DNA of 64,000 nt from Marsupella aquatica. Lineage: Eukaryota > Plantae > Marchantiophyta. The stretch covers positions 18,852,857-18,916,856 of the forward strand of contig OZ316893.1 of NCBI GenBank assembly GCA_973895155.1. Direction: 5' to 3'. A program made the position numbers and the translations under genes. Shown here piece by piece: positions 24,964 to 53,771 of the stretch; the stretch's first letter is position 1; each line of letters starts with the position of its first letter. Under the pieces are notes generated by a model. That model was not told the origin of the DNA, ran no database searches, and was given only the letters and a program-made list of their open reading frames with translations.

Positions 24964-25052
24964 GTATCACCAACTACTCGTAGTGGAACCCCCTTGACCT
25001 TCTTTGGTTGCTTCCAAAGAACTCCATCCCTAAAAAAGTATCCATAGGCCTT

Positions 25053-26533
25053 AGTCGCAGAACTTGACTACCTTAACACTTAGCTCCGGCGTTGCTGACT
25101 CCGATGCCGAGCTCCCTTATGGTCTAGGCACGGATAGGCCATCCGGGGAGGACTTAGCATGAGGAGACTTGTGGCAATGAGACATGGCACTGGCAAAGGC
25201 AAAGCGCCAAGCTGGTGACACACACTAAGGACTTAGGCTAGCTGGGAGCTAGTCGGGTCAAGGGGAAAAGGGGCCAGGCTCAAGGTCGACCGTCCAGACC
25301 CCAGACAGACTTTGAGTTCTAAGGGCTTGAGTGTGAGCTCCTCTTGGATCCAAGGCCAATGGAGTTGACGCCATGTGCAACGGACGCTTGGGGCGAGAGT
25401 TATGGCCCGATCCGGGTTTGGCCAATTGGGGACCCCAAGCGGCGATGAGACCTGGGGGTCTAGGCATGAGCACTGGGTCGGCCCGATCACAACGGGCTAA
25501 GGCCCTCCGCTTGCGGACGCCTAACGAGAGAGTTATGGGCGTTGCCAGTTGATATATGACATGCCCAGTATGAGTGATAGGGTCCGGGTTGGGAGCCAAA
25601 AATTTAGAGACCAAAGCTGGTCCGGGGGTGGCAGGTCTCCAGAAGCATATATGAGGGGAGTGGTGTCTCCCTGGGGGCTAAGGGCGAGCCGAAGTCGTGA
25701 GCCGCGGGGGTCGCGACACTAAGGGAAAACACCAAAGAAAAATGACGATATCCTCTCAACGGGAAGTCTGTTGGAGGCCTTCTTGGGTGCGTTGGAAAGC
25801 TCTCAAGGAGGGCTACCTCCTTTTGAGATCATCTTGGTCTGGGGGCGCCATAGGTGCTCAAAGTTTGTGGGTGTTATCTCATCCGCTTGCCAAATCCTTC
25901 CAAAATAGTAGCCAAACTGCGTTCAGTCTCCCAAGGGAGCTTGCGTTGGGGAGGCAAGGCCAAGTAGGCATGGAGGTTGAGGTCCATGGGTGCTTGGCCC
26001 CTAGACCATCAGTGGGGCAAACCGGGAGTTGGTTGCTAGAGTCGGGCTATTCTGGTCCCAACATGTTGGGATACGCTATGCTAATTGGGCCATGAGCATA
26101 TCTTGGGGTCAGGGCGGTCAGTTGGTGATGGATAGGTACGAGGGGGGAACCCAGGCCGCGCCCAAGGAAGGAGTTGTTATGGACAAACAGTGGGCGTACG
26201 TGGGTTCTAGTTCCAGCTTATGGCGTTGGGAGGACCTATCGCTGACCTACTTACCAATGTCTGTTGAACTTGAGTTAGGACGCTAGACTTGGAGAGATCT
26301 AGATCGTGAAGGGTTACTTATCGAGACGCTTGGTTTCTTGTGCAAACAATGAGGACCGTTAAGTAGCGATTGTGTTAGAGAGCAAGTGCGGCTTCGTATC
26401 GGAGGGGCCGCTGGTGGTGCAAGGGGCACTAGGTTGCTTGCTCGAGGTATTCCGTGGAGGCATTCGGGCACCAGGGGCATTTAGGCGTGGGTGTTGGGAT
26501 TGGTGAGGGCGCTGGGTAGCAAGGTCCACCACT
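25053..26533. mobile_element. Non-coding 1.48-kb element with AGT...ACT termini, 5-bp TSD GCCTT (copy 1)
   Basis: gcctt|agtcgcagaacttg ... caaggtccaccact|gcctt. Removal restores KKIRRKA-YGYFFRDG in the host pol. Homologous to 53772-55536. Confidence 0.88.
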
Positions 26534-31839: not shown

Positions 31840-33646
31840 TTTGTGCCTGTGCCTCCTACCTGGACCCCTCTGGTGCCTCCTTGGCCAATCCACTTGTGTT
31901 TAGGGGTGTCTTTAGATCCAAAGGGAGCTCATACACTCGGTGTGATCAAGGGAGTGGTAGGCGAGGTGGTAGGACAGTGACACACCATGACATTCAGGAT
32001 ATGGTGGCAGCCATTGCATGCTTAGGACTTGGGATACCATGCTACAATGGAGTAGTGACATGTGCTTCCACCGCGGGATGGTATCCAATGTTGGGTAGCT
32101 CCAAATCGATACACAGCAGAATATACCCAAATTAAAACCGCAATGAGTTGCTCACGGTGCAGAGAACCAACAACTTGTGTATTCCTAATCAATCCTACCA
32201 AAATTGAAAATACCGAGCTCTCTAGTGAGCTCCAAATTGATCACAACACAATCCCAATTACAATCACAATGTACAAGTTATTGACAATGCTAGCTCCTCT
32301 CTTCCCTATAGCCCTCAACGTCACTCAATGAAATCATAGCCTTTTTTTCTTCCCGCAACCCTGATGTCTTGGAAAATTTATATATGAGAGGTTCCTCAAA
32401 GAGAGACCAGGGTACACAACATCATCACTTATCAATGATTGATAATTGATATATCAGCCATTGATACCAATTATCAATTTTGACGCTAAATGTTTTTTGA
32501 ATCTCATTTGAGTAGCTAAGATGGGGCCTTTGCACCTTCGTGCAACATCTCAACTGGGCAGAGATTGGCCCAATCTTGGCTGACCTCGACGAGATAGGCG
32601 TACGGACAAAAACAATTGGGCAAAAACAAAACCATAAAATTTTCAAAAAAATATTTCAATCTTTTTGGTGTTAGTACCACACGGACACCCACCCATCTTA
32701 GCTAACCTCACTGAGATGGGGAGCACGGACACCCCATAGTGAAAAAACCAAAAAATGCATTCTCCCTTAAATTTTTTGAAAAAAAATATCAATTTTTTCT
32801 GTTTTTTAGCTTGCATCGCAACTCAATTTCTCTCTGAGATGAGGTGGTAGCTGATATCAAGCGGACTGGTGGAGATGACTTATAAATGATGAAATTACTT
32901 ATCTTAGAGAGTCCCCAATGTTTGGAAAAGAGAGTGGCCCCAATGTATCCCTTAAAGAAATGATGTAGTGCTTGGGCAATACTTTCGCCCTCTCCTTCAC
33001 ATCACCCTTGTCCCCTCCCTAAGTCCCTGACACCTGGAGGCTACAAAGTTCTCCCCCTCAAAACCTAATTTTGGAGTCCCACCAAGTGGATTTTTACTTT
33101 CAAGGTCTGGTTGAGTCAAAGTTTTCAGTTGGGGCCACACCAAGAAATTCATGTGGCTGAGGAAATTGTCACTTCCCATGGGGTCCGGAAAGACCATTAA
33201 CAAGGCAAGGGATCCATTGGTATTTGCAATAACATACCATTGTTTGGAAGATTAATGTGTTGAAATATTTGCTAAAAAATGCAATCAATACAGAAAAAAG
33301 TAGCGAAGAATCTGTATACTCATAAGGCATTTGTCACAAAAAGCTATGAGAAATTGCTCAACACAATTTTGATAATACCAAGTATATAGGCTTTTTTGAC
33401 CAGCTAAAAGGCAATTGCCTAGGACAAGGCTTGAACTAGCTTACAGGCGGGGAAAACAGTTCATGTATAGTTTTGTATTACTTTCCATTATTCCAACAAC
33501 CTACCACGGGCGCCTATGGCGTATAACATATTTGACCCATCCAAAATGTTTTGGCACAACATATACATAACAAGCAAAGAAAAATTGTCTAAACAGGATT
33601 GAACTTGATACATGTTGGTCCCGACTACCCATGGCCATTTGAGCTA

Positions 33647-33782
33647 TGTTGTGCGCATACACATCGCTACACAACATACATCGTTTGTCACACATATCCA
33701 AGCATAGTCACAATCTAACGACACAAACCTAAGAGAATGATCTACAAATGGAACCCATGTCCATACATGCCCAAAACCCACA
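33647..33782 (-). repeat. Terminal repeat Y2 (136 bp)
   Basis: Matches 34115-34250 with 2 mismatches counted by eye; TG...CA ends. Confidence 0.95.
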
Positions 33783-33783
33783 A

Positions 33784-34112
33784 TAATCTTCTTCAATAGT
33801 GCAAATCCAACAACGATCGGTGCTAATCCAACAACGATCCCATCCGACGCGATCACACATGTATGTCAAGCCCAACACACCTTGTGCTTCAAGGAATCCA
33901 CATTACATGCACACAACCTGGTGAGCCACACCATAGCCACCAAGCTCATGCTCAAAGGCTCAACATTGAAAGATGAGGCCTTTGAGCCAACACCCGGGAT
34001 AACTATCCCTCACACCAACTCAAACTAAACATAGTGCTCATGTAGCACACATACAAAACCTCTATACCTAGATAGTATGATATACTTTACTACCACTCTA
34101 AATGGTGTGACA
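33784..34112 (-). repeat. Terminal repeat X2 (about 330 bp)
   Basis: Matches 52504-52833 with about a dozen differences counted by eye. Confidence 0.95.
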
Positions 34113-34114
34113 GT

Positions 34115-34250
34115 TGTCGTGCGCATACACATCGCTACACAACATACATCGCTTGTCACACATATCCAAGCATAGTCACAATCTAACGACACAAACCTAA
34201 GAGAATGATCTACAAATGGAACCCATGTCCATACATGCCCAAAACCCACA
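34115..34250 (-). repeat. Terminal repeat Y1 (136 bp), directly after the PPT-like tract
   Basis: Copy of 33647-33782, preceded on the minus strand by TAGGGGGGCGAT. Confidence 0.95.
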
Positions 34251-34425
34251 ATCGCCCCCCTAGCTGGAAGTGAGGTCCCCTAACTCTAGCTAGCCATGAT
34301 TTCTACAAGGTTGATATACACCTTTTTAGGTGTGAAGATCAAGAGGCCGGGTGCAAGTGAGCCCCATTGATCACCTACCTGCAATTTATATCTTCCACGA
34401 GAACACAAATGATAACTAGTCGGCA

Positions 34426-34570
34426 TCACCGACATTGAGGACACAACCATGATCCACTAGGAATCATGTGCAAGGGTGGTGTCAAACACGACATGTGCCA
34501 TCCTCTAGAACACCAATCACAAATTAACATAGTAGCTGCTCCCTAAGCAGACCCACACAACATACATTTC
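34426..34570 (-). pseudogene. PHD finger at the integrase C-terminus
   Basis: KCMLCGSA*GAATMLICDWCSRGWHMSCLTPPLHMIPSGSWLCPQCR is a C4HC3 finger, in frame through one TAG. Confidence 0.9.
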
Positions 34571-35757
34571 AAGCCAGCACGAACATGTGTCAAGCTTGGA
34601 TCCACAGTACCATCAATGTTTGGAAGATGACACGGCGCACAATTACGCACATGATCCTTCCAAACCATACCATCACGTCCTTCCAACATAAGGACTCCAG
34701 AAGGCAACACTTCACGCATACGTAAGATTGTCCGCCCTGCGGTCACATCAAGCGTCGTTGGTGCTGTCCGCTGCAAATAAACATAATCGCCAGGATGAAA
34801 TCTTCTAATCCTCGTGCGATAACCTCCTCCACAAATAGTAGCATACCGCAAAGTATCACGATGTTGGGCAATAGCAAGGTTGTCAAAGGCCATGGGCATG
34901 ACTCTCTCAAAAACTCGTGTCCTCTCTGAACAAACCTTGAATCAAACATCTGGATCATCCAAATCCACAACATTTGCAACATCACGACGAATAGCCGCTG
35001 GCAAATCTGGCTCTCTACCATAGAGCAAGAAATAAGGTGAAAAGGATGCAAGTGATGCTTGTCGACTGAAACGGTAGCCCATAGCTAACCAAGGTAGTTG
35101 GAGATCCTAGTCTCCCAAATGACCAACTTGCAAGCCATACTTACGCAATCCTCTCTTCACAGTTTGTACAACTCTCTCTGCCAATCCATCTGTCTCAGGA
35201 TGATCGCGAGAAGTAGTACGATGATCAATCAGAGCTTGCTCACACAAACCCTCAAAATCTCTACGGAATTATGTGCCCTAATCAGTCAACACCTCAGCTG
35301 GTGCTCCAAAGTGACTGAGTACTCGATCCAAAAATGTGGTAGCCACTCCTCCACTAGCTTTATCTGGCAATGCGACTAGTTCAATCCACTTGGAGAAGTG
35401 CTCCACCATAACCAAAACATACCGATTGTGACGTTGGGTAAGAGGCAATGGACCAGCAAAGTCCAAACTCCATCGATATCCCAAACCCATGATCGGTAGC
35501 GGATGCAACTAAGGAGTGGGAGCATTGAACGATGCTCGCACTCGATCACAAACCATACACTTAGCTATCAATTGCTGGACATCAGTGTGCATACCACGCC
35601 ACCAATACTGTGTCTGCAGCAAGCTATAAGTGTGCTTCACACCAAAGTGCCCTAACTCTTTGTGCGCATGTCGCATCAAATGTACTCGTTGTGACAGTTT
35701 TGGTACAACCAACACCTTCCCATCACGTAGTACCCTCAAAAGATGGTTTCCTTCCCA
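34571..35757 (-). pseudogene. Gypsy integrase (HHCC + DDE core + C-terminal domain), disrupted
   Basis: HKELGHFG...CMVC, WSLDFAGPLP...VEHFSKW...VLTD, FHPGDYVYL. Confidence 0.92.
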
Positions 35758-37446
35758 TCAAAATCTCTTGGCTCGTTGTAGAACCCTATCACCCTCCTTA
35801 GCATCAACATTGCCACCAATGGAGCCACCATACAAATATTCCAACACTCTCACATCGTTGTGAATATCTTGCTGTCCAAAAACTACATCACCAACATCCA
35901 TATCCGAAGACTCATCATCTACTCCATCCAATGAAGTAGAGTCTACATATCCACTACATACTGGCACCCAACAAAGGAAAGCAGATGCATGCCATCCTGG
36001 CACCATCTCCTTATCTGTCTCATCATGCCATCGAGCTCCAATCTCATCCTCTTGACTGGTACATGGATTGCGGCTCAACCCATTCGCATCCAAATTCACT
36101 TTTCCAGGTCTATGCACAACCTGAAAATCATACTCCTGCAACAATAATGCCCATCGTGCAAGCTTCCCTCTAAGCTTGTCAGACTCCATTAACCACTTGA
36201 GAGGTTGATGATCAGTGATCAAGGTGAACAAATTACCAAACAAATAGCAACGGAAATGTGCCACAGCCCACACTATTGCCAAACACTCTCCCTCATAAGA
36301 GTTGTACTTAGCCTCTGCTGAATTGTTGGATCTACTGGCATACGCCACAACAAACTCATTCCCATCATCATCCTTCTGAGTCAACACTGCTCCAAGTCCT
36401 ACTCCACTCCAATCAGTGTGAAGCTGAAATGGTCGCCCTGAAATGGGTCTTCTCAAAATAGGTGTTGATGCCAGTCTTTCCTTCAACTCTTGGAAAGCAT
36501 GCTCCTGTTCGTCTCCCCAAATCCACTCCTGATCCAACTTAGTGAGTATAGTTGAAGGTTTAGCAAGCTGGCTAAATCCTTTAACATACCTCCTATAGTA
36601 GCTCGCCAATCCCAAAAATGCACGAACTCTGCCCACATCAATAGGACGAGGAATCTGTGTAATAGCCTCCACCTTAGTCTGTTGCACACCCAATCCTCCT
36701 GGGTAGATAGTGTGGCCCAAATACTCAATCTTCTCTTAAAAGAACTTACACTTGCCGGGATGGAGCTTCAATCCATGTTCCCTCAATCTTTCAAACACAA
36801 TCTGCAAGTGTCTCTGATGTTCTTCCACAGTAGAAGAATAAACTAAAATATCATCAATATAACATCTGACAAAATCCAAACCTGCAAGGATTCGATCCAT
36901 GACTCTCTAGAACTCAGCTGGTGCATTCTTCAACCCAAATGGTAAGAACAATCACTGATACAAACGATCTTTGCCATAAGAATCAATCCCCCAGAATGTT
37001 GTCTTGGACCTATCAGAATGCCTAATTGGCAACTGATGGTATCCCGCCCTGAGGTCCAACAAACTAAAAATCCTTGCATGCCCCACTGCATCAAAGATCT
37101 CCTCCGGTGTGGGCATGGCATATCGATCAGATTTTGTTTGACGATTAATAGGCCGGTAATCACCGCACATTTGCCTATCCGTGTAATTGCCATGCACATC
37201 CTTCTTGGCTGGCATCATTGTGGCAGATGCATACTCTCTGTATGAAATCTCCACCAAACCAGCTTCCAACAAATCCTGAGTTCTACTCCGGATCAATGCC
37301 CTCTCCATATCACTATATCGATATGGTCGTCGAAAGATTGGCGCATCACTAGCCAGTTCAATCTGAATACCAGGGCCCTTCAATGTTCCCAAATCCTTCA
37401 TGCTAAATGCAAAACAATTCCAATAACTCTTCAAGAATTGATGCAT
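35758..37446 (-). pseudogene. Gypsy reverse transcriptase + RNase H, disrupted
   Basis: CGDYRPIN, LDLRAGYHQL, RCYIDDIL near 36860, FLGLASYYRRYV, LHTDWSGVGLGAVL, YASRS..YEGECLA, TDHQPLKWL. Confidence 0.95.
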
Positions 37447-37696
37447 TCAAAGTCTCTCACCCCCTGTCAACTTAGGACCAATTTGTGGCTCCCAACTCTC
37501 CATCAAAGCTGTGATGTCTTCCTTCGGGGTTGAAGAGATAGTCGGTGGTTGCTATTTAGCAACAATTTGAGCAGTCCCAACCTGCTCAACAATCTGTCCT
37601 GCCTTGGCCAATCCTGCCATAGGTCCATGGACTGTCTGCTCGCCCCCAGCTGTGGTCGCTACTGTCTCAGTAGACCGCAAGCTCACCAATGGACGA

Positions 37697-38720
37697 TCAG
37701 TAACACCAAAAGAGCGCATCCGGCCACAATTGTTCAGCTAAGATTCCCAAGCTGATAATCCAAGTCAAGCAATTCAAATCCATGGCTTGACCAAGGACTT
37801 GGCGGCGTGAACTCTCTAACACAGAGGCAACCGCAGTAGTGCCAGTAAAAAATCCCATAGCACGCTCTCGTTCATCAGCAGTAGGTTCCACTAACTGTTG
37901 TAGAGTTGTATTCCATACAAGTCCAGGCCCACCTGCTTTGAATGCATATGAAGCAGAATGACTCACAAAAGTGGGTAATGCACAACGTGGGCGACCAACT
38001 ACATTGACCACTGCCAATGGAGGTCTGTCAGGCTGGGTCACACCTTGTGCACGATGCCTTGGATCCAAAATATCATCCACCACCAAGGTTGTTGAGCGAG
38101 GAATGCTATCAAATGCTCGCTCCAACACCTCCCAAGGTAACAAATTAGTCCACCACAATCGTGGACAATGTGCACAAGAACCCACACGTGCAACATCCAA
38201 TAACACAATAGGTCCAATCCAAGACTTAACCTGATGAACGCTGGCAACAAGTCAATGACGATCATCACCCAATAATGGCACATTCTCCAAAATGTAGGCA
38301 AAGGAATGTGTCTGATGCAACTGAAGATGACGCAACACCCGTAACATCTCCCAAAACAATGCAAATCTTGGATCATGAAGTCCATGTCCAACTCCAACTC
38401 TAGATTGACCCTGACATGGCCAACCTGCAATCACCAAATCAATGGGGCCAACGCGATCCAAACGATCCACCCCCAACAATGAAATATCAGATGGCAATGC
38501 ATGCTGATAACCACGAACGGCATCCACTGGCAACAACTGTGGGTAACGTTCGACCAATAATGCCACATGACGTAATGAGCCTCTACGTGCTATCTCATCA
38601 GTCTCCACATACAAATAACGGCGCACAAGAATGCCGGCTTGAAGAACGGTAGCCAATCTAGTGCTAATTCCACCAAATAAATCCAACAAACAAATACCCT
38701 CATGTGGATATTGCCATGCA
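37697..38720 (-). pseudogene. C5 cytosine DNA methyltransferase domain (DNMT3-like) within pol
   Basis: Motif I LDLFGGI, II YVETD, III SDI, IV AGWPCQ, V DPRFALF, VI LENV. After one in-frame TGA (38252-38254): VIII AHCPRLWWTNL, IX ERERAMGF, X RRQVLGQAM. Confidence 0.93.
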
Positions 38721-39125
38721 ATAGGAGTAGTATCTAGTGGTGAAAGAGTCACTGGTCCATTTGCAGTTGACTGTTCTGCTCCTGATTGCGGTGTAAAAGC
38801 ATGACGCCATGCATCATGTATCAATCGGGCTGCACTTTGTGGCAAGGCCTGCCCAGTACCCCATACTGGTGTCACAACACTATCAATGGGAAATCCATGC
38901 ATCAAGTGTTCCTCATGTGCCTCCTCCACCGTAGGAACATCTGCTGCATGTGCATTACCCTTAATCAAATCATCAGCTCCAGTAATCAAACTATTGAATG
39001 CTGCCAAAGACAATAGTGCAGATTTGGGGCCTCCAATAGGTCCACTAAATTGCACTGGCAATTGGCTCAATCGAGCATCTCCAGATTGCCAATTGGGTCG
39101 GTACGACACCGATTCATTCCAAAAA

Positions 39126-39430
39126 TCAAGAACAAATCTCATAGGATAGAACTGTGCATCCCACCAAGACATCATATGACTCAGCCTTAGTCAAAATAGC
39201 TCGAGCCTGGATCCGTGAGTTATCCTTTGAATGATCCTCCTGAATCCTAAGTTCAAGTGCTCGTCGAGTGATATGTTGTGTGCGTGTAGGTCCTCCCAAT
39301 GAAGTCTGAATGGGAAAGGGACACTCCTCCAAATTATCAGGACGCAATCCCAATCCTCTTATCGCAGACTTACCCAACATCAAGGGCTGAGCACCAGTAT
39401 CAAGTAACACTCGCTCTGGCTGGTATATTG
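39126..39430 (-). pseudogene. Retroviral-type aspartic protease
   Basis: VLLDTGAQPLMLG...YDVLVG; a frameshift near 39150 leads into the DNMT-containing frame. Confidence 0.85.
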
Positions 39431-39449
39431 CTCCAAAAGGCCCAACTAA

Positions 39450-40574
39450 TCAGAAGATACCACTCCGATTATCAAGTGATATGACGCTAGGTTTAAACCT
39501 AGTCCTCTCATAAGCAGGGTGCGCTGGTAAATCTATCAACCTTGCCGCTGCTGCATGCCATGTCTCATTACTGGCAATAGGTGGATTCAAATCCACTGCT
39601 TCTAAATTGGGCGTTGCTTCTGCACGTGAAGCAACAATTGGAGTGTCCTTGCATAATGTGGCCGCCAATCTGAACACCTCTGTTGGACTAACTCCCAATG
39701 CCAACATATCCGTAGCTGAAAATAATGGCATTTTCACTATAGTAGTGGCCGCCCCCAACAGGGTACTTGTCATCCCTGTCACAATATCACTTGAATCCGC
39801 CAACTTACCCCCACCTGGGTTAGTCCAAACCGGATTCATAGAGGTAGTTTGAACTGCCTCTAACAATGTGAATAATTGGGGAAGCTTCGTTTGACGATGA
39901 AGATCCCCTCTCTATGGATCCAATTCTACCACTGCTCCTCGTGGCTCAAGGGCTTTTGCTGCTCCTCGAGTTAATGCTGCAGATGCATCAACATGCGCAG
40001 TGCCACACATAAATCCCATGGTGGCAAGATCTCCATCAGCTCCATAAGAGGTTGAAGCTCCATAGGATGTAGAAGCTCCATCACTAGCAGTAGGTCTAAC
40101 TTGAGAACTAGCCATTGCAGCTAGTTGTTGCTCCAATTGAGCAATCTTTGCATCCTTAGGATCTGTGGTAACGGTAGGAGCAACATCACCTCCCTGTCTT
40201 CCTGCATGTGGCATGCCTCGACCACGTCCACCACCTCTACCTCCTCTTCCCTGATCATACACACTTGGTCCTCCCCGTCGTAGTTCAAGATGAAGTACAA
40301 AACACCTATCTTTGGTGTGTCCAGAAACTCCACAATGCTCACATTGTCGTTGATCAGGCGTAGATGCCCCTCCTTGCCCCCTAGTATCCGGAAAATATCT
40401 TTGTGCATGATCCCCACCACAAGTCCAACATCCTGACTATTGTCCAGCATAAGAAGACACGGGTCTCTGACTAGTAGATTCCCGTATTGTAGGCTTCTCC
40501 CTTTGGCTCTTACGTGCAGTAGGTTGCGGTGTGGGCGTCAATGCAACCTTTGGTGCTTCCTTGGAAAATCCGGA
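39450..40574 (-). pseudogene. Gag C-terminal part (Cys/His knuckles, RGG tract) and gag-PR linker
   Basis: CGGDHAQRYF- and CEHCGVSGHTKDRCF-like knuckles at about 40300-40430; GRGGRGGGRGRG. Confidence 0.75.
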
Positions 40575-41416
40575 CACTAGAAGAATCCAAGGTGAATTGA
40601 GACCGCAATATGTGACTCATTTTGGCTCATGTGACTTCATTGTGACTCACGCTGTGACCCTTAGAGTTGCAAAAGTTGAGACCAAAAAATGGAAGTCATT
40701 CTTGATACTGGGCTTTGCAACTTGCTTGATACCCATTTGTGACTGATCTGTGACTTTATTGTGGAGTCTAGCCTTGTTTCTACGTGACTGCAATATGACT
40801 TTAACGAGTCACATGGTAAGTCATATACATGACTTGCTCGCATTCAACAACGACTAGCGTGTGACCATTTAGTGTCACAGGAGAGACCAATGGAGACTCT
40901 GGCCCGGGTCACACAACATAACCATTTGGGACTCTATATACTCATGTTTATAACTAATAAGGTTCACATGCAAGTTGTAACCATGACTAATGAACACAGA
41001 GGGACAGTTTATAAGGAGAGAGAGAGCACTCCACATTACAATACATAGAAACCTGATGTTCTAACTTTAGAAATATAACACATTGAATACAAGAAATGAA
41101 CATAGCATGAATGACATCCACATCAAACAAAGCATCATATAAGCAAATCCTACATAAAACATTCATAAGAATTAAACAGAATCACAATCTTGCTCTAAAA
41201 TTTAGATCATTTGAATTCCAATGGAATAGTTTACAATGTGATCAATGTAATTTAGACAAAACAGGAACTCATAATTGATGACTGCAGGATGAGATAACTG
41301 AAAGCACATGCATGATACTATGAATCTCCAAGAGGACATGATTCTTGTACTCCTTCTTGACATCTAAAATCTACATAACATGACTCATAGTACAAACAAA
41401 TAATGACATGACATTG

Positions 41417-44400
41417 TTATGGATCCTCTATGAACTTGCTTGGCCATAATACCAAAGAACCTGCAGCATCTCCAAGTGTCTTTTGAGGAGGATCATCATT
41501 TGTGTTTGGAATAGGAATGACAGCTTTAGGTTTCACTAGTAATGTGACTAACACTACTAAATAACCTGGGGGAATCCTCTTGCCATGGAACGTTGTGGAA
41601 CCAACCTGCACTCTGCCAAATCCTACTCGTGTTCCACTCTCATCAACAGCTAACAAGCCACTTTGTCCCTCAACATTAGGTGCTTTCCCCACTTCCACCT
41701 TAAATCTTTTTGCCAGCACCGTTCTTGGAGGTTTGTATGAAACCTTTGACGTGGCTCTGCTCCCACCAGCAGACTTGCTTTGTGTGCGCATGCTTCCTCT
41801 CTTCACTGTAGTGAAGCTAGGCTCAGTAGGTTCCTCTGTTAGGACTGTCATAGTAGCAGGTTCATCACCTGGGAGTGTCATACCAACTAACTCTTTGGTT
41901 GGTTTTATCTCAACAAGAGGCACACCTGTCATTGAGAATGATACATTCTGCAAATCATTTATCTCAGCAATGGAGTCAAGATCTACATAGCATGAATCTG
42001 GCTCAATGGTATCATTGTCATGCTTGCTGATATCCTCATTTGCCCCAACATTGATATCATCCACTCCCTTGCCAATGTCATCCTCATCCAAACATGGTTG
42101 ACTGCCCTCTGTCAAACAAGTTGCTTGTACAGACTGCAACTTTGTTGCCTCTAAATTACAATGAGTATTTGCCAGGTTCTCATACTTCTTCTCTGCAGCA
42201 CCTGCCTTATTCTCTATGGACACAACAACCACAATATATGTTACTGAAAATAACACATTCAACAAACAATGTCAATTCAAACTATACATTTACTAATCAT
42301 ATCCCACACAGTTGTAAAGGCCTTACCTTCGAGCCTACATGTCATTGGCATGCCAGAAGAGTGCATCGACTTTGCCACCTCAAGTGGTGATGGTGGAACT
42401 CTTGCAGAATTGGAATCAATTTTATCTCTCACCGACACAACAGCTTCCATTAATGTCTTGAAGTTCACATGGAACAAGTCAGTCAATGAATTCAAACGTT
42501 CATTGATCTCTGGAAGACATGTTTCGACAGCCTTCAAACGACCACTTATCTCTGTAAGTGAAGATCCACCTCCCTACATGACACAGGGGTATAGGTTCAA
42601 TCACTCCATATGAAATGTTGGGCAATATATGCACAATCAATGTTATATACAGTGTACACCTGAAATTCAACGCAGGTCATTCAATTACCAATTAGAACTC
42701 ATATAACTTACATGCTTGGAGGATTCAGATGCACCCTCTTGAGCCCGGGTGTTCACAATTTCAGCCCTCAACTCTTCTTTTGAAGGGCTTTGCCCCAATT
42801 GGGCTTTCTGCACATGCATGGCAAACACAAGTTATCATTATTATTCAGGGAACGTACACTAAAAAACAAAGTGAACAGTACATAGTGTAGCATAAATTAC
42901 ATACCTAGGTCATTGATTCTTACCAAACGTTTTGCTGTCGGTGCAGTGCCGGTCCTTCCTGTCAGATTAGGGTTCTGAACACTCAACCTGGCCTCGGTCA
43001 TTTGTGAACTCTTCTTTTTCGAAGCATCTGTTACAAAATAAGCTACTAACCTTGACCACACTTTATCATCACAACTGGCTGGTGGAGGCATATCTGGCTT
43101 CTCCCCACCTTCCTTCCAAACCTTATGCATTCTCCACCTCTCTTGCTTTATGATTTTACCTGCTGTACTCTCTAGGCAACCTATGTCCACGCCATCATCA
43201 CTGCCCACATAATTCCATTTGGCAGCAACATTTTCACATACAGTCTTCCAATCTTTTGGATGCTGTTTTTTTAAATTAATAACACTCACATCTAACCAAC
43301 ACAATACTTCAGCTTTCAAATCAGCATGCCATCGGTTCTTACGAGGACACTCAGCATCCACCCATTGTCTCTCATTCAACTTTACGTTCCCTTTCTTTGT
43401 CACCTCCCCTCGTGCACTGCTCTCGGTAGTACTGGGCGTTCTATTGGCCACCCCTTCATTCACCCTACCTGGGGTTCTGAAGCCACCTGGGAAAATACAA
43501 TGCCATTCATGCTTGAGAACTACATACAGCATAATGGATGACGGCAACATTCAATGCTTCACTTCAAGAAAAATTCTTCAAACATACATACCTGTAGCTC
43601 TGCCTGTAGATGCCTGTGCAGGGACTGCACTCTGGAATTGTTGTGACCCTGGACCACCTGTCCAGCCTAGTACAGGGGCCGGATGATGTCACTTTCTAGG
43701 TATGTAACATATGTACTAAAAACATAGTACAAACTATAGGAAAACATATGAACATTCACCAACATACCTGGCCCCCTTTCGTGCTGCATCTGCATAGGGG
43801 CATTAGTGAATACTTGAGTCGATGGTTCGACTGTCCAACCTGCACACATACATTTTCTATTATTATACATGTGCAGAATCCCCCCCACGTCAATGGACTC
43901 CACATTTAATGAGTTCTTCCATTGCTGACAAGATCAGACATTACCTGCCCCTCTTCCAGCATTTGTAGGTACTGTATTTTGAAATCCCTGCCAATTACCT
44001 TCACCACCTTCCCAACCTTATTCATTCCACGATCCACCACCATCCTCCCAACCTTGTTCAACCCATGTCTGTCCTTGTGGACATTGGAACTGATCATTAC
44101 TAGCATTTGCCCAATCAGGTTGGGCAGAATCTGCATGCAATGGCACGTGGACAGAATTTCATGTTGTCTGAATCCAATACATCCCAAACAATGTCAAAAA
44201 TTGATATGCAGTCTGAAATTCAGGATTGCCATGCCTTCACAAATAACTGGCATATAGATATATACTCACATCCCCATGGTTGAGGTGGACGTCCATACCC
44301 ACGAGACTGTGAGTTTGGACCTGCTCTGCCTCTACCACGGGCATAACCTAGAGCTTGCCCCCTGCCATAGTATTGGGCACCAGCCTGGGATCTACCACTA

Positions 44401-44746
44401 CTACCACCTCGCCAACCTTGATCAGAGGTCAGCCCCCCTGCTGGTATGGTGCATGCACAGGCTTTGCAGGCAAAACAGAACTGGCAGGACGCTGCATCAC
44501 ATCACCAACTACAATGTCAAGAACTAAGCAAGGTACATAGGGTGTAGTACTGAACATATGAAACCTCTCAACAAGAGTTTTTAACTCTAAACCTAGCTTG
44601 TTGGGAAAACTACTTACCTGTTTCTTTTGGGGCTGCTCTGCAATGTATTCATCTTCATAACCCCCATCCTCATCCATTTCCTCTAGAAAATACTCATCAT
44701 CTGCATCTTCTTGTCTAGTGTCTACACCCACTTGCGCAGCATCCAT
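41417..44746 (-). CDS. CACTA TnpA-like accessory gene (multi-exon; boundaries approximate)
   Basis: DKVWSRLVAYF...KKKSSQMTEAR...TGRTG (Ptta/En/Spm-like) and C-terminal TTFHGKRIPPGYLVV...TLGDAAGSLVLWP (Tnp1/En/Spm-like). Confidence 0.7.
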
Positions 44747-45299
44747 GTCATCTCCACATTATGCCATTGTAGGTACGACCTTCTTGCTCACTCTGTCACT
44801 CCGGCGCATGGGCCCAGAGATAGTGCTGGTCACCCTTCTTGTGTACTCCTTTTGTTTCTTTGAAAAACCTGCTGCTCTGCGACATTCCAACATGAGAATA
44901 CAGTCACAATTTCAGTGCCACATTGAACTATTCATGTCACACAAACTCAGCGGAGGGGTGTAGTTGAGAATCGTTCCCTTACAATTCAGCCACATCCTTT
45001 TCTAGATCCAGTTCTGCAATTTTGGCTTTCACGTATGCTCGTTGTTCCATAGCTTTCCTTTCATACTCACACATCTCTGTGTCACTCTGTTCCATCCTAC
45101 TGGACCACAAAAACATGTCATCTATGGTCACCCCGTATAACACAATGCAACCACAATCACCAGGCATCCATCCATACATCTGTGTTGCTTTAGAATTACT
45201 TTATTACACATTCCCTCACTAATGTCCATGCAAACAATTCACATTACTCATGGCACAGGCACACTGTTGGCATCTGCATCTCTGAATTCACCTCCTTCA

Positions 45300-47038
45300 G
45301 CAAATGCATCTACCCTTGTCACAGGAATGAAGTCCCCGCTATCATGAACTACAGGCACTTGGTCTGAACGCCGACGATCAAAGGCACTATGAGAGTGTAA
45401 ATGAAACTCAAGGTTTGATCCTTCCATCCGACGTTGCCTGGCCTATTTATGACACACTACACGCCAACCTGGGGAGTCTTCCACATCCAGGAAAAAAGCT
45501 TGCTCCACCTGACTTGGAAACACAAATGGCCCAGACCATTCTGGCAATTTCCCTCTGAAATTGGCCAGCAAGAAACCGTCATTGTCTCTCTTCATGGTAG
45601 CCCTATTACCAAGCCAATCCTGCCGCACCTATGAACCTTTCATAAGAATCACAGGACTGGACACCGCCCCATAGTCCAAAGCCCATATGTCAACTAATTC
45701 TCCCACATATCCCATCTCCATCCAGGCCCTGTCGTGATTGTGGCTCTGTTGCTCAAATACAGTTATGAGCCCACAGTCATTTGTCACCCTGTAGGCACTA
45801 TCACCATCCTTCACTCGAAAGTGATTCCCATATGCTCTCATCTGTTTGTAAGTCTTCACTTTCAGGCTAGGGGCATTAGACAATAGGTAATTGTCTGCAT
45901 CCATGTCTGGGTGGGTCTCGTGATGCTCTCTAATTGCCACTCTAATCCACTCCATGAAACCTGGAAAAGTTGTTCCTACAGTGGGATGGGCCGCCTTGAA
46001 TGACTCATACTCCCTGAACAAACAACCACACAGCATTAGCTTGGGTAAATATGAACAGGCTGAAGGAGAAAATCACACGCACACAACATTTAAGCTCATG
46101 AACTGGATTATAGCACATGTATGCACTCACTGTATCCATGGTTCCATCACCACAGTGTTGTGCAATACAAAGTCATGTGCCAAGTCTCTCATAGATGTGG
46201 TCAGGTTCTTTGTGGTTGCAGCCCCTTCCAGTACTTCACCTATCACCCCTTCCTCCTCATCAGAATTCCACACCCTGGTCTTCACATGCTCATATTGTGC
46301 TATGTATTCGGTCATAAATCCCAGAGTCTCATCCTTGATGTAACCTTTAGCCATGCTTGCTTCAGGTTTGTAATATGTTCTCACGTGACCTTTGAGTAGC
46401 TTCATGTACCGTTCCAAAGGGTACAACCAACGACCACTCACAGGCCCAAATTGGTGTAGCTCTTCCACAACATGGACAAGTAGGTGGGTCATGACATCAA
46501 AAAATGCGGGAGGAAAATAAATCTCCAAGTCACACAGCACCTGAGCGACATCTTCTGTCAGTTGTGGGAAGTGTGTTTCATCCCAAACCTTCACAGAAAT
46601 ACGACGAAACACATCACTGAGTCGCATGATCACATTACGAACAGGCTTCTGCAACAGGCCCCTCAGACATAAAGGCAACACCTGTTGCATCAACATATGG
46701 TAGTCATGGCTTTTCATACTACCAAGCTTTCTAGTCATGATATGCTTCTTGAAAGCACTGCCATAGTTTGAAGGAACCTTCAAAGAACTCAACCTCTGCA
46801 CAAATAGTTGCCACTCTGTGTCTGTCAGAACATAGGGCGCTTGGTACTTCAAGAGCACATCAGCTCTGTGGGCATGTGGCCTCAACCAAAGATGGGGTTT
46901 CATTCCCCTTTGTTCAAGATCCAATCTCATTGAACCAGTGTCTTTCTCTCCACACAAGAATCTGAGTAGACTCTCACAAATATTCTTCTCAATGTGCATA
47001 ACATCAATGTTATGTTTGCTTGGCTCAAACTCCTGCAC
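45300..47038 (-). pseudogene. CACTA transposase (TnpD-like), C-terminal half
   Basis: DVMHIEKNICESL, MKSHDYH, FFDVMTHLLVH, WLYPLERYMKLLK, PFVFPSQVEQAFF..D..GWRVV. Stop at 45629-45631; N-terminal half not evident. Confidence 0.9.
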
Positions 47039-49955
47039 CGTTGCAATGCAAAAGCGTCAGCAAATGCCTCAAGTTTAGTCTCTCTCTTTGAAATGAATGC
47101 ACATGCTCTGAACCAAAACATGTATCCCAATTAGCATCAACTCCAAGAGGCTTACCCTCCAATACTTGAGCTCCAAGTCCAATATGCTCAGTCTTTTTAC
47201 ACCATATCGCTTTATTGGTTCTACAATTGGTTCTCCAGATCAAAATGCAGCACACATACTTCTGGAACCATTCAGATTCGGCCTTGCCATTTTGTTGCCT
47301 CCAAGCTCAATTCATCCATGTCCTACTTGAAGGCAAAATAGACAAAAATAGAGCAAAACCACTAACCAAGTAGTGTTTGACCATAGGGACAACAAATTGA
47401 AACAGAGAGAAGGCTGGCAGCCCAAGCCAATAGTCTTCCATAGGGGAGAGAGTACGATCAAGAAAGTGAAGAACATGTAGTTCTTACGCAAAAAACTCAG
47501 CAACAATAGACAAATTCACTAGCCAGAGGGAGTGAAAAGCAAATGAGTACCAAGCCAACCAACTAAGACTGACTATGAAATGCAAGTGACGTCATTACAA
47601 CCAAAACAATACAACAAAGCACTTAGGCAACATTAATACAAAATTGTAGAGGAATTATATCATGCGATAGATAGTACTCGGTTCTACCTGAGGTGTACAA
47701 TCATACTCCCCTCAGGTAGAATGTGTATGCAGTTACATACACATGACGATCCCCAAGAAAGCAGACAACAGTTCCTAGCAGACAACAGTTCCTAGCAGAC
47801 AACAGTTCTTGTTGCGTGTCTCAGGCTGATTTTTACTTTCCAGACTTGAGAGTTGTGAAGGTAGTTTTAGTAACTTTCCTTTGACTCGATTTGGGAGCAT
47901 TTGACCTATCTGCTAGCTTGTAGTTAGCTTCATGATGTCTGTACACTTTGGTGTCCGAGCCGAGCACCGATTCTTCCTCTCCTCTATTTTAGCTTCGTGA
48001 TATCTGTACACGTTGGTGTCCGGGCTCTGATTCTGCCTCTCCTCTATTTTTGCATCGTGATAGGCTTTGATCACAGTAGCGTATTGGAGCATGGAAATTT
48101 GAGGTCCATTTCAAGGCAGCGGGAATAAGTACATTGATCAACTGGAGACCAGAAATGCGCATATGTGAATGTCATACCTTTCAGGCGGAAGTCATAGGTA
48201 GCAAGTAGCAGGCATGAACTTGCAAGCAGCAACTTGCGCTCTGTTGCCCCCTGCAGCTTACTAAAAGAACACTCCACTGAGAAGCAATGACAACGGATTG
48301 GAGCTCCTCCCCAATTAATATAGTCTCCAACCAATCACGTTCATGATCTGAGGTGAGACATGACATACAATAATCGCTGATGCAGAGATCTAAGAATCGT
48401 CTCAATCCAAGGAACAGAACATCTCACGACATCACGGACATTTTACAGTAACAAAATGCAACACCCACCCTATGCATCTATAACATTGAGTACAAACATT
48501 CATGGATTGCAAAATTACTCTACACTTCATGCGTCACCTTCAGGTCAAGTCGTAGCTCCAGCCACAACTCATAGGTCGTAGCTCCAACAAGTAGCTGCAA
48601 CCACGGCTCACAAGTCCAGCTCCCCTGTCAGCTCACATGAATAGCGCCTCCCTTCGCTGCACTCCATGCATCTGTTGCTAGTTGCAACACAAACATTAAG
48701 CAGTCAATAAGCAGGGCCACTTTCATTGTACACAATGTCACATAAATCCTACCTGGACGGTTTGCATTGGAATAACTGTCATAATCACCCCGGCCGTAGC
48801 CTTCACTGATCAATGTGAAGGGCGTGCACCTCAATGCCAGCATTCAGTGTCCGGGCTCTTGTGAGTGGAGAATGAGTTTAAAGACAACAAGAGGCCATAA
48901 CATTGCCTCCACCTACAATGTATGTCATTGTTGAGGTAAACTTACCAAATGTGAACTCCAATCTCTGCCCACAAGAACAACTCCTTGCGACTCTTTTGCG
49001 CGTCCACAGATTGTCTTACTGACAATGCCAATGCAAAAAAGGGCCCGATCGCTGTTGCAACCACGATGATCCACCTCACGCTAGATAGTTGGCCTTCAAG
49101 ATCACTCCCCACTTTTTTGCAGCTCCTCAGTTCTACGTCGCAGCTCCCCGATCCTCCACAACCCCTTGCCCACGGCAGTGCTGCAATAAAATAAGCTCCT
49201 GGTCGCAGCTCCTCAGTTATCGGTCATAGCTGCAACAACATAAGCTCATAGTAACTCGGCCTAAACCCACAGCTCAGTCCTCCAATGACAAAATACCTAA
49301 ACCTTGGCCCAAATGCGAGCTCCCGATAGTATTCAGACCTTGCAACATTCAACTGGAAGCGCACAATGGAGAAGAGCTTGAAGGTCGCACACCTGAAAAA
49401 ATCAATCATGGATTGATCTACGAGCTGGATATTGGAGTCTGTGTCTCTCATCCAAGGCTTCCAATCATCTGCTCTAGTCCAAAGCTCCCAAAAGTATAGA
49501 GGGCAGATGTACACTCAAGCATGACAAGCGGGAGTGAAGTCCGTAAAGCTCCTCTCCCTAAACGATGGTTGTTGGTAAGCACAATGGACATCCAAGTTTT
49601 TCCTTGACAAAAACCTCCGAGTTCCCGCGCACCTTCAACTCCCATTTGCACTCTGCTGGTGTGTTTCCTGTTGAAAAACCCGCTCACCCTAAACTTGTAT
49701 CCAAAGGCAAACTCACGCACAATGCATACCTTAACACTTAGTGAGAGAACTGAACCCAGTGACACTCGACCACTTTGCGTTGACATGAGCCGTAAACCCT
49801 AAAGCAAATTTGACACAACACAATATGAGCAAAGATTAAATGAACGCACAGGGCTAGGATTAACCTTACAATAGCCTTGTTGCATGTTCATTAATTAAGA
49901 GCACAAATGATGAGCCTAAAAGAAAAATAATACTATCTAAGATCAAGCCTTCTTC

Positions 49956-49978
49956 ATATATATATATATATATATATA
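49956..49978. repeat. (AT)n microsatellite
   Basis: Run of AT dinucleotides. Confidence 0.9.
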
Positions 49979-50537
49979 GCATGCAAAAATATAGTAGTTG
50001 GACATCCAATGTTCTATGGCTGGTATAGAGGGTAGGACAAGTGGTAAAGATGGGGAAAATTAGAGATTGACTACAAAAAGCATTAAGTTAGGTTAACAAG
50101 GTTTGACAAAGCCGGCCTTTTTTTGTTTGAATGGGGCTGAGGCTTCATTGTGTCTAAATGGGGTCAGGAGTAATTATGGTTTAGAATGGTACGACTAAAC
50201 TATTATTAAATTGATGTGGAATGACATATGGTGTATCCAAAATCATATGTATATGGTTGCGGATCCCATACTTTAAGGTTTAAGGGTTTAAATGTAGTGG
50301 TCTCATAAGTTGTACTCTAATGTAGAGTCACTTGTATAACTTCACCCTAATTGCCTTAACTAAGTTATAGTTGCAACTTACCTAAAAGTTGTAAACATGA
50401 CTTGGCAAAACTTCACCAAAACTCAGTCAAGAAGGTGTGACTAACATGACACCAACAACCTTGGAGTCGCTATTTCATGAAGGTCTTGGACAAGTCACAC
50501 ATCTCCAGGTCTCAAAACGGGTGGATTTCTTCTAGTG

Positions 50538-51473
50538 GGAAGTTACCACCTTCTCATTCACCATATTGAGCTCAATGCGCTCAGCAAGTGAAAAAACTAT
50601 AGCCAATGTGGGATCTGAATCCCTCAATAGAGTGGCATCTCTCACTCTACGACGCAACTCCCTATCCAGAATTGCATACCAAAATTGGACCACTTGGGCC
50701 TCTGTCACTCCTTGTGTGACCGTAATCAACCTTCGCATACGAGTGTATGCCTCACGTAGGCTCTCTCCAGTCTTGCGCTGGAACTCCTGAAGACCCTTCA
50801 ACTTCTCGGTTCTCACACCCTGGTAGTTCTGCTTCAATACTTCAAAGAACTTCATCACAGGGTTAAATGTTGGCGCAGCTCCACTCCCAGCCACAATCAC
50901 ACCGGTAGGAATAGCGGTGGATGCTGATGGAGTGCCACTCTGGCTAGTGCTGCTAGAAGAAGCCGCAACTGTAGCAATGGGTTGGGCAACTGCACTTGTG
51001 CCATAAGTGATGGACACATAGTTTGGTGACCAATGCTGTCTCCATGCCTCAATATCCACTAAATGAGCCTTTCAAAACTCATGGTAGTCATCCATGGGTG
51101 GCCCCTCCAAATGCTAAAACAACCCTTTCCAAGCCATGAAAGGTGTGAACAATGTGGCATTACGCATTGTCTGCATATCACACCACGTATCAAACTCTTG
51201 GATGAAATCATCCAAATCAATCGTGCCAATTGCACCAGAGTATCTCCTCGGCCCTTTCGTGGTCCCATACATCTCCTCCATATCCCACAACAATGGAATA
51301 GTCACTTGATGTTGAGGAGAAGTGGCTACTAAGTCCTTGTCAGAATCACTATCTGAAACCCCACTTGTGACCACTAACAATGTCGTCGGCCAAAATTGCA
51401 CTCCACTCCGAGTGAAACCAGCCCGTCGTCCCTCGGGTAGCCCCATATCACCAGAGGACTCCGTGATGACCAA
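50538..51473 (-). pseudogene. Gag N-terminal/capsid part of the DNMT-Gypsy
   Basis: DLDDFIQEFDTWCD and FQRKTGESLREAYTRMRRL (retrotransposon gag homology region); continues at 40574 across the CACTA. Confidence 0.85.
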
Positions 51474-51525
51474 TTTTCCCTAAATGGTCACCATCAACTC
51501 ACCACTATCAATAATCAACCAATTG

Positions 51526-51866
51526 GCGGAACGGTGTTCCGCGGATACCCATCACTCAATCGCGGAACGGTGTTCTGCAATGCACCACCACCAATCTCCA
51601 AGACAATTGACAGAACGGTGTTCTGTAAATTGCTTAGTTGCGGGACAGTGTTCCGCAACCCTCCATCACCAATAGCCAAGCTAATTGGCGGAACAGTGTT
51701 CCGTGAGTTGCCTAGTTGCGGGACAGTGTTCCGCAACCAACCCTTCTTCACAACGTAGACGAGACGTGTGCTGGGGCAGACCAATCTTCCCAAAATTACC
51801 ACAATGGAATGGTGCTCCGCAATCGACCAATCTCCAATATGCCCCCTCAACAGAATAGTGTTCCGT
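51526..51866. repeat. Array of eight 17-bp palindromes (GCGGAAC-RGT-GTTCCGC) in the retrotransposon leader
   Basis: Copies start at 51526, 51562, 51610, 51640, 51688, 51718, 51804 and 51850. Confidence 0.85.
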
Positions 51867-52503
51867 GAAAGACCTTCACAATCTTGTTGCTGCGAAAACC
51901 CTGCCGCAATTCCCGGACAAAGCACTGTTCACTAACTTTGTCATTTTCCTTGTGCCCTAGGTCGCTGCCGCACCTCGCTTCTCCGCGGTGCGCTACGTCG
52001 CCGTAGGCAATGCAATTTGCCAACATTCAACGTCGCTTTCTTCAAAGGAATGCACTGTCCGTCAACATCAAACTTGATGAATCTCAAATCCGCAACATAC
52101 AACTTCAACGATCAACTCCCGATTGGGACCATCCCCGAACCAGAATCACAAACAATCACAAGTCTGACCGACTTGCCTTCACAAAACCGCAGCGAATACT
52201 CTCAACAATCCGCGCATAATAGTCGACAATAGCTTCCGATCATCGACCGCACACTTAGTCTTCCAAAATGCTGCAATGTTGATCGATGCGAACTGCAACT
52301 CCAAACGCACACTCAACAACTCAAAGCTCCGCATTCACTAGAGCTTTCTCAACACCAACTTGTAACAGATCGAGATACCAGCGATCCGTTCAACAACAAA
52401 ACCCGATCCGAGATACCACGAATTGTCAACAACAACACCACAACAAAATCGAACTTCTGTTTGCACAATCCGTACATCAGAATTCGAAGCTGATCTTTCA
52501 ATG

Positions 52504-52833
52504 TAATCTTCTTCAATAGTGCAAATCGAACAACGATTGGTGCTAATCCAACAACGATCCCATCCAACGCGATCACACATGTATGTCAAGCCCAACGCAC
52601 CTTGTGCTTCAAGGAATCCACGTTACATGCACACAACCTGGTCAGCCACACCATAGCCACCAAGCTCATGCTCAAAGGCTCAACATTGAAAGAGGAGGCC
52701 TTTGAGCCAACACAAGGGGATAATTATCCCTCACACCAACTCAAACTAAACCTAGTGCTCATGTAGCACACATACAAAACCTCTATACCTAGATAGTACG
52801 ATATACTTTACTACCACTCTAAATGGTGTGACA
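52504..52833 (-). repeat. Terminal repeat X1 (5' end of the DNMT-Gypsy)
   Basis: Copy of 33784-34112; ends gtgaca followed by TSD gcta. Confidence 0.95.
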
Positions 52834-53771
52834 GCTAACTCAATAGGGGCAACTCAATTGGTTCAAAGAAGAGAGTTATGGTATAGATGAATTTGGAACT
52901 ATCTACACCTTCATGAATATGCCATTTCATGCTATTTGAAGTGGTCTACCTTCAATCATGTTTTATTTTCTCCTAATTCTAGGTTCTGGAAGTTTGCATT
53001 TCCCGCATGTTTTGAGTTTGGTGTTTGTCTTCACACAACTCTTTTTGTGGTAGACAGTAGACTATATCGTAATGTAGCTTTTTCATGGCTTAATTGAAAT
53101 CAAAGTTTTGGGGCTTGAGACCAGGATTTCAAAACCAGCCAATGCACCTTCATTTGCTTGCATGTATTCAGTGGTTGAGGACAAATCAAAAGTAGTTGAT
53201 GAGAACTAAATTGCAAAAATTGCACATATAGAGATATTTTGTGGTAGCAGCAAAACTTTGTTGGATCCTATCTCAGTCATTTTTTATGACAATGGACAAT
53301 TTGGCCTAAAAAAAAACTTTGCAGAATGCAAAAGTGCCCTAATGCCAAGTGCCATTTACTGGGTGAAAACATGACCATAAATTTCAACTCTAAACTGTGA
53401 GCTTATATATCGTGTAGACAAAATGTGATTAGTAAAAGGAGAGTCTATCTAGTTGCTTGTAGTTGGCCAAAACAGGACCCGTTTGTTGAGCAAAGATGCA
53501 ATTGTCAACAGCATGCACATGTGACTTCCTTTGAACAAGTAGTCAACATAGAGAGATTCGTGGTTCCAGGTGTGGTTCACTTCCGGTGAGGCTACATCTA
53601 TAGGAATACACAAGAACTTTAATGCACTTTAACCCCGTTCGCCATACCAAGTCATCACAACACAAGCTCTCCGTATCTCTCAAATGACTCCATAACATTG
53701 ATTATGAGTTTCCTATCCACAAGTGTACATTGCATGTGTATATGGGACTTAGCACAGCTAACCTTACCAAG

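Follow-up and report, generated by a model that had tools for sequence, protein, structure and literature searches.

A liverwort Gypsy retrotransposon of the Klebsormidium type, with a DNMT3-type methyltransferase gene ahead of a conserved and probably leaky stop codon

A 64,000-nucleotide stretch of the genome of the liverwort Marsupella aquatica (contig OZ316893.1; the whole stretch is referred to below as the window) contains a dead copy of a Ty3/Gypsy retrotransposon of the Klebsormidium type, in which a gene for a DNMT3-like cytosine methyltransferase (DNMT) lies between protease (PR) and reverse transcriptase (RT). In the bryophyte lineage to which this copy belongs the methyltransferase is followed by a conserved in-frame stop codon. 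The reading we favour, and consider reasonably probable, is that the stop is leaky, that the enzyme would be produced at the level of the capsid protein, and that it would likely methylate the element's own new DNA copy. Why retrotransposons should carry an enzyme of the class that silences them has been a question since 2018, and the sole Gypsy example was algal.

The methyltransferase proper is located at about 38698-37740 on the minus strand (as are all features of the element given below, unless noted), with its motifs in canonical, unpermuted order: FGG at 38677, the motif II Glu at 38611, GWPCQ at 38443-38411, ENV at 38293, motif VIII at 38173, ERERAMGF at 37873 and LGQAMD at 37795. A preliminary description of the sequence had listed C5-methyltransferase motifs in order on this strand, including PCQ and ENV, with one internal nonsense codon and an Arg change in motif VIII, and each of these points holds. 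The nonsense codon is the TGA at 38252-38254, the only one within the domain; the first Arg position of motif VIII is substituted and, in addition, so is a Gly position of motif I. The same description gave the whole of 37697..39175 to the enzyme, which is indeed present there, but 39175-38700 is a linker between protease and methyltransferase. With the TGA read as X, the repaired protein matches PF00145 (E 1.5e-8) with 34.9 bits, the cut-off being 22; that score and the ordered motifs I, IV (PC), VI (ENV), VIII (RxR), IX and X identify it as a C5 cytosine methyltransferase.

The suggested affinity with DNMT3, rather than with the permuted DRM enzymes or MET1/CMT, is borne out by both sequence and predicted fold. 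DNMT3A, B and C make up 29 of the 30 PDB sequence matches. A profile of seven DNMT sequences matched DNMT3A in the PDB with an E-value of 1.4e-17, followed by M.HaeIII (1.1e-7), DRM2 (2.7e-5), DNMT2 (1.6e-4) and DNMT1 (0.8). The AlphaFold model (pLDDT 89.2, pTM 0.90) finds DNMT3 as its best Foldseek match (E 5.1e-18) and is aligned by VIA-align with DNMT3B over 280 residues (Z 28.3, rmsd 2.9). Lower Z-scores were obtained with M.MpeI (25.0), DNMT2 (20-22), DNMT1 (19.4), ZMET2 (18.1) and MET1 (17.5), the DNMT1/MET1/CMT/DRM/DNMT2 types compared spanning 17.5-22.9 in a comparison list without DRM2. Matches in the ESM Atlas were to generic PF00145 clusters only. Sequence matches and the modelled structure together confirm 37740-38698 as a DNMT3-type C5 methyltransferase gene of the Gypsy element. 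Among 170 classified domains out of 181 aligned, a set found by similarity and so favouring conservation, 166 retain the catalytic Cys, all 170 the motif VI Glu, and 165 and 168 the two motif VIII Arg residues; ERERAMGF and DLVIAGW served as scan patterns, and their conservation in the loci is by construction. In intact copies the enzyme is probably active.

The element as a whole occupies 33647-52833, with the order gag-PR-DNMT-RT-RH-INT-PHD (RH, RNase H; INT, integrase). The order PR-RT-RH-INT, a DDE integrase, TG...CA ends and a short target-site duplication (TSD) place it in Ty3/Gypsy. The 5' part of gag (50538..51281, with two stops) is 66% identical to residues 1-244 of the Marchantia protein P0003, and a Pfam search with it returned zero matches. 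A CACTA (En/Spm) DNA transposon of about 10 kb (40575..50537, no strand assigned) is nested in gag and divides it in two; it has CACTA ends, a 14-bp terminal inverted repeat, a 3-bp TSD, DUF4218 and Transposase_24; another En/Spm-like transposon with DUF4218 lies at 17367-19652 on the plus strand. Sequence comparison places the 3' part of gag, with zinc-knuckle-like motifs and a linker, at 39450..40574. The aspartic protease (39147..39449, with LLDTGA) is 74% identical to the intact protein P0194, and its match to PF13650 (E 4.9e-4) is under the curated cut-off. Beyond the linker (38700-39175) and the methyltransferase, the C-terminal tail of ORF1 (37555..37739) is 71% identical to the last 56 residues of P0194 and leads to the in-frame stop, likely leaky, in the CAR-YYA context TAG CAA CCA (37546..37554, the stop itself at 37552-37554, in the RT frame). 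Domain matches define RT at 36697..37419, with three stops, and the integrase at 34650..35700, with its H2C2 zinc finger, rve core and C-terminal part; RNase H lies at 36112..36534 (PF17917, E 2.3e-37). A PHD finger ends the integrase (34432..34566, with one stop; PF00628, E 6.8e-11), and ORF2 ends at 34426. The methyltransferase had been described as lying inside pol, between protease and RT. The position stands, but the domain ends ORF1 (Gag-PR-DNMT), ahead of the stop.

This copy of the element is dead. Besides the stops and substitutions mentioned, the DNMT frame is cut off from the protease by a break near 39150 and from the RT frame by another near 37725. Both breaks represent decay, because other copies, in contigs of four sequencing runs, differ in length at these places. 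Each of the 30 bins of the element, those of the DNMT among them, is covered by contigs of the four runs, read depth being used only for presence and not as copy number. Extra CpG loss was not seen in the element: its observed/expected ratio is 0.49, the window as a whole also has 0.49, and a LINE and a second Gypsy element have 0.52-0.53.

The window holds further repeats and a host gene. A second copy of the family, 78-88% identical, lies at 7600-10130 (-) and has gag, RT and RH but lacks the PR-DNMT part; the junction near 9105-9135 is occupied by unrelated sequence, and a further insertion lies at about 8040-8330. A further decayed Gypsy-like element at 21900-27900 (-) has RT, RH and INT about 24-28% identical to those of the DNMT-element family and no DNMT match; a part of it (25059-26533) is repeated at 53778-55536. 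An apparently young LINE ORF2, open over 1,133 codons (RVT_1 E 1e-26, zf-RVT), is found at 12147-15548 (+), and MITE-like 155-bp tandem repeats within a 120-bp inverted repeat at 61745-62682. The host gene, at 232-3023 (-), contains introns and encodes an AT-hook/PPC protein of AHL type with PCC Pfam matches, which supports a land-plant host, as does the placement of the element among liverwort and moss copies; upstream of the gene lies a C-rich, degenerate tandem array of 10-11-bp units (4740-5270).

The methyltransferase is not peculiar to this copy. Database searches found 42 longer related proteins, among them 14 models from Marchantia polymorpha (57-74% identity), one from Sphagnum fallax and two from chlorophytes, and a 50%-representative protein library held 430 relatives at E <= 1e-30. 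DNMT identity is 68% in Calypogeia fissa, 55% in Sphagnum troendelagicum and 43% in Klebsormidium, and further relatives occur in Klebsormidium nitens (KFL_009030040), Closterium, Monoraphidium and Haematococcus. A metagenome scan gave 295 confirmed stretches, from which 80 loci were retrieved. The preliminary description had raised the prospects of a domain present in a single copy and free of purifying selection, or lying outside the pol frame in relatives. What is found is a multi-copy family with DNMT and RT in one frame in 43 of the 60 metagenome loci that cover both domains, and a DNMT dN/dS of 0.09-0.16 in seven between-lineage or well-preserved pairs (upper bootstrap bounds <= 0.24), to be compared with 0.04-0.14 for RT. 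Pairs of decayed Sphagnum copies give 0.49-0.79 for DNMT, as expected after insertion. The comparisons point, with near certainty in our judgement, to the methyltransferase being a selected part of a multi-copy element family of mosses and liverworts.

DNMT and RT trees agree, and the window element groups with liverwort and moss copies with a support of 1.0. The trees (FastTree, midpoint root) have weak deep nodes and comprise element-borne domains only, partial domains and cluster members being left out. Two architectures separate in both: one, with DNMT before RT, has streptophytes as its named hosts, and the other, in which DNMT lies between RNase H and integrase, has chlorophytes. K. nitens branches among the pre-RT elements, apart from the chlorophyte group, the joining nodes having SH support of 0.0-0.7. 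The chlorophyte-type arrangement is represented by P0031, P0039, P0043, P0164 and about 120 others, some of which add a G-patch or Tudor domain; the family spans green plants and its DNMT has shifted position. Related DNMT domains accompany a Copia-type RT (RVT_2) in P0186, P0265 and P0267, models from Closterium and Tetraselmis, where either capture by Copia or chimeric models are possible. One family member, P0038, is filed at NCBI under a bacterial metagenome-assembled genome (Minisyncoccia) and is probably mis-binned algal DNA. Within bryophytes, the window RT is 79% identical to Sphagnum P0030 (over 111 residues) and 69% to Marchantia P0005, with dS of about 1.5-2.3 to copies of the Sphagnum clade, whose RT is itself 100% identical to S. 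fallax over 110 residues; transfer of the element between bryophytes is possible on these figures. A second Gypsy-DNMT3 lineage, clade C (L033-L080, with L078 counted in it), has WECQ for WPCQ and ENT for ENV and lacks the stop; its contig flanks share repeats with the Sphagnum clade, and peat moss probably harbours both lineages.

The stop after the methyltransferase recurs in the relatives of the window element. In the window TAG CAA CCA (37554-37546), in the RT frame, separates DNMT from RT. The closest intact protein, P0194, which is 84% identical with all motifs kept, ends one codon before the position of the window TAG, and five Marchantia genes of 1,278-1,281 residues end 79 residues past the DNMT. 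In the Sphagnum clade a stop occupies a single position in all 19 loci with the linker preserved, as TAG in 12 and as TAA in 7, and none has a sense codon there; CAA CCY follows in 18 of the 19, while a 20th locus has lost the linker. The context there is CAA CCY and not CAR YYA, and an in-frame ATG three codons past the stop makes reinitiation possible. In clade B all three loci read TAG CAR YYA, so that the type I sequence UAG-CAR-YYA is exact in these and in the window. The second codon after the stop varies between Pro, Ser and Leu while its YY stays constant; as background, CARYY follows any stop triplet in 19 of 2,743 cases. In one locus (L029) the stop is the only break in a frame of 2,417 codons, dividing it into a gag-PR-DNMT part of 1,369 codons and an RT-RH-INT-PHD part of 1,047. 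Elements with the stop form one clade, with support of 0.997 in the DNMT tree and 0.994 in the RT tree. This evidence comes from P0194 and metagenome loci, among which L008/L009 and L014/L015 are probably double assemblies of single insertions. The stop was absent from all 37 loci of clade C and from the Klebsormidium and Closterium models; a high DNMT output is therefore not required.

From these comparisons the stop is a family trait of the window lineage, not a product of decay, and it is probably read through part of the time. CAR YYA after UAG is the essential readthrough signal of tobacco mosaic virus (TMV), giving 6-10% in stable plants (PMC2754532), and retroelements normally hold Gag at about 20-fold over Pol (PMC2194720). 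In this lineage protease and methyltransferase would sit on the Gag side of the Gag/Pol switch. The enzyme would then be regulated together with the capsid and not with RT, an arrangement that points to its acting in bulk within the particle.

The ends of the element are those of a split repeat, in the order A1-internal-B1-A2-B2. A1 (52504..52833) starts with TG, is likely to contain the promoter and transcript start, and is 96% identical to A2 (33785..34112); B1 (34115..34252) and B2 (33647..33784) are 98.6% identical and both end in CA, that of B2 being the 3' end of the element. The 4-bp TSD, TAGC, stands at 52834..52837 and again beyond the 3' end at 33643..33646. An 11-mer resembling a primer-binding site (52494..52504) is complementary to 52683-52693 inside A1 and predicts self-priming, and a purine/G run adjoining B1 (34253..34264) is likely the polypurine tract. 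The B1/A2 junction, CA-AC-TG (34111..34116), is a predicted uncut integrase site. The full A-internal-B-A-B set is found in the window and in five of 26 loci screened, most of the remainder being too short or decayed. Among six elements examined closely, all have the G run before B1 and the CA-NN-TG-type junction (once mutated), and five have a 4-bp TSD; in four, the stretch just behind A1 matches a site within A over 11-15 nt. Together, the TG...CA ends, TSD, junction and self-priming site suggest that a permuted two-LTR circle was integrated. We infer that the true LTR would be B+A, with Tf1-like self-priming and an integrase that cuts the two-LTR circle within one LTR. The H2C2 and rve integrase and the TSD set the element apart from the tyrosine-recombinase (DIRS/Ngaro) type, and its ends offer a concrete, checkable route by which a DDE integrase makes DIRS-like termini. 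The best PDB matches of the PHD finger are CHD4, PHF12, Lid/KDM5, PHF21A and ATXR5, whose PHD fingers are mostly readers of unmodified H3 tails; by analogy, reading of unmodified H3 here would parallel the ADD domain of DNMT3 itself.

The mechanism that we propose, of which the window copy is itself incapable, would run as follows. Transcription would start in repeat A, and most ribosomes would halt at the UAG to yield Gag-PR-DNMT. Readthrough at roughly 5-10%, the TMV rate for CAR-YYA, would add RT-RH-INT-PHD, leaving Gag-PR-DNMT roughly 10-fold above RT and integrase. The protease would free the domains within the particle, at about one DNMT per Gag. The RNA would prime itself, and the B-A...B-A cDNA would be closed into a two-LTR circle. 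The abundant enzyme could then methylate the cDNA de novo, most likely at CG. Within one of the LTRs, at CA-NN-TG, integrase would open the circle; insertion of the circle, which the PHD finger would likely direct to unmethylated H3 tails, would leave A...B-A-B and a 4-bp TSD. Taken by itself, the proposal that cDNA is the main substrate of the enzyme is one that we only slightly favour. More tentative again, and in our view rather doubtful as a whole, is the broader scenario in which a moss and liverwort lineage shifted its recoding stop from gag to behind a de novo DNMT, its particles carrying about one DNMT per capsid protein and its cDNA being methylated before PHD-guided insertion of the LTR-cut circle; such an element may act within bryophyte genomes as a transposing source of de novo methylation.

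The stop need not be read through for the enzyme to be made at Gag level, as RT-RH-INT-PHD could be expressed from an internal promoter or through reinitiation, or its mRNA could be spliced around the stop. Four NCBI models from Marchantia and Sphagnum (P0005, P0006, P0011, P0030) do join DNMT to RT by skipping the stop region, but with four different junctions, like ab initio introns placed to avoid a stop; the DNMT-RT fusion in these models was rejected, as they skip the stop. The ATG close behind the Sphagnum stop would serve reinitiation, yet the position is absent from the window and from clade B. There is a precedent in Tca2, whose in-frame gag stop is not read through by local context according to PMC2194720; against it, three lineages with synonymous sites near saturation have preserved both the exact frame and CAR-YY(A). 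We regard these routes as unlikely, and readthrough as the better account. That the domain is a fragment of a host DNMT3 captured once, or that the stop arose by decay, would suit the many stops and two frame breaks of the window copy, but hundreds of relatives share the position and frame of the domain, the DNMT and RT trees agree, dN/dS is about 0.1-0.16 and the stop is shared with intact relatives, so that there is hardly any room for either.

Where the enzyme acts is a separate matter. An abundant DNMT might have host chromatin as its main target, or rival elements reached in trans, or it might limit its own element by silencing new copies. Output at Gag level exceeds the need of one cDNA, DNMT3b of moss works in heterochromatin as a de novo CG/CHH enzyme (PMC6453930), and de Mendoza et al. 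raise the benefit to the host of slowed transposition (PMC5890265). Fusion to Gag, on the other hand, would favour loading into the particle, and we consider action of these kinds improbable relative to methylation of the cDNA. Lower still do we place a non-catalytic role for which the domain would be kept, be it nucleic-acid binding or particle structure, or methylation of RNA. The Klebsormidium enzyme showed no activity in yeast (PMC5890265) and the motif IV Pro is replaced by Glu in 77 of 170 relatives; but green plants as a group show hardly any variation in the catalytic Cys, the Glu of ENV, both motif VIII Arg and the Gly that binds SAM, and the fold is nearer to DNMT3 than to DNMT2.

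Marchantia polymorpha has several uninterrupted Gag-PR-DNMT genes (examples are Mp_4g09160, Mp_5g06330 and Mp_Vg00370), entered at NCBI as 'hypothetical proteins'. Since this species is transformable and has methylation mutants, among them Mpmet mutants with derepressed transposable elements (bioRxiv 10.1101/363937), the question of why such elements carry the enzyme becomes testable in a land plant. Retrotransposon genes of this kind also inflate the DNMT counts in bryophyte annotations.

The nearest known system is KnitGypsy-Dnmt3 of Klebsormidium nitens (de Mendoza et al. 2018, PMC5890265), to which bioRxiv 10.64898/2026.05.21.726589 also refers by name, and the link to it drawn in the preliminary description is upheld by a common domain order and A-internal-B-A-B ends. 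Both are Ty3/Gypsy elements in which the DNMT3-like domain is unpermuted and under purifying selection and the repeats are split in the manner of DIRS; the seven pairs measured here (0.09-0.16) fall under a Ka/Ks of 0.2. PR-DNMT-RT order is shared by the window, the loci and K. nitens P0236, and KFL_009030040 has the same PR-DNMT-RT-RH-INT order, with DNMT 43%, RT 41% and RH 57% identical. They differ in host, a bryophyte as against an alga; in the DNMT being described inside the Pol ORF (PMC5890265), whereas the window lineage has a stop with readthrough context after it; and in the PHD finger, which goes unmentioned for KnitGypsy-Dnmt3 in the available text of that paper, the K. nitens model being partial. 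Relatives in Closterium and chlorophytes argue against a capture limited to the lineage of K. nitens. In yeast, no methylation was obtained with the KnitGypsy-Dnmt3 domain on its own, a result its authors term inconclusive, while SymbioDIRS-Dnmt3 of Symbiodinium methylates CG de novo there (PMC5890265). The latter is also a retrotransposon-borne DNMT3 with A-coding-B-A-B repeats, but it is a DIRS element with a tyrosine recombinase, unlike the window element with its DDE integrase, its TG...CA ends and its 4-bp TSD. A literature search found neither a land-plant Gypsy-DNMT3 family nor a post-DNMT stop described, though supplementary figures or trees and subscription journals could list bryophyte copies; PMC12344493 and the bioRxiv paper, in the text available, say only 'streptophytes', citing the 2018 work.

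Other known systems share single features. Mammalian DNMT3A/3B and moss PpDNMT3b (PMC6453930) are the best sequence and fold match and have the canonical motif order, but the window enzyme is only 20-24% identical to them, has no PWWP or ADD domain and is encoded by a retroelement. In the TMV replicase with its UAG-CAR-YYA (PMC2754532), in MuLV gag-pol and in SIRE1 pol-env (both as cited in PMC2194720), an in-frame stop sets a high:low ratio of products, as proposed here; the window stop, however, follows protease and an accessory enzyme, and not gag or, as a stop before env, pol, as in MuLV and SIRE1. The self-priming chromoviruses Tcn1/Tf1-Sushi (PMC6317226) resemble it in predicted self-priming and in a histone-reader domain that ends the integrase, a PHD finger replacing the chromodomain of Tcn1, and REM1 of Chlamydomonas likewise bears a PHD finger, as cited in PMC8557442 and PMC6673714; the window element differs from all of these in its DNMT and permuted ends. 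The available text of the REXdb paper (PMC6317226) contains PHD, methyltransferase and Marchantia 0 times. Set beside these systems, the window element appears to be a land-plant member of the known KnitGypsy-Dnmt3 kind, departing from it in the stop that follows the methyltransferase.
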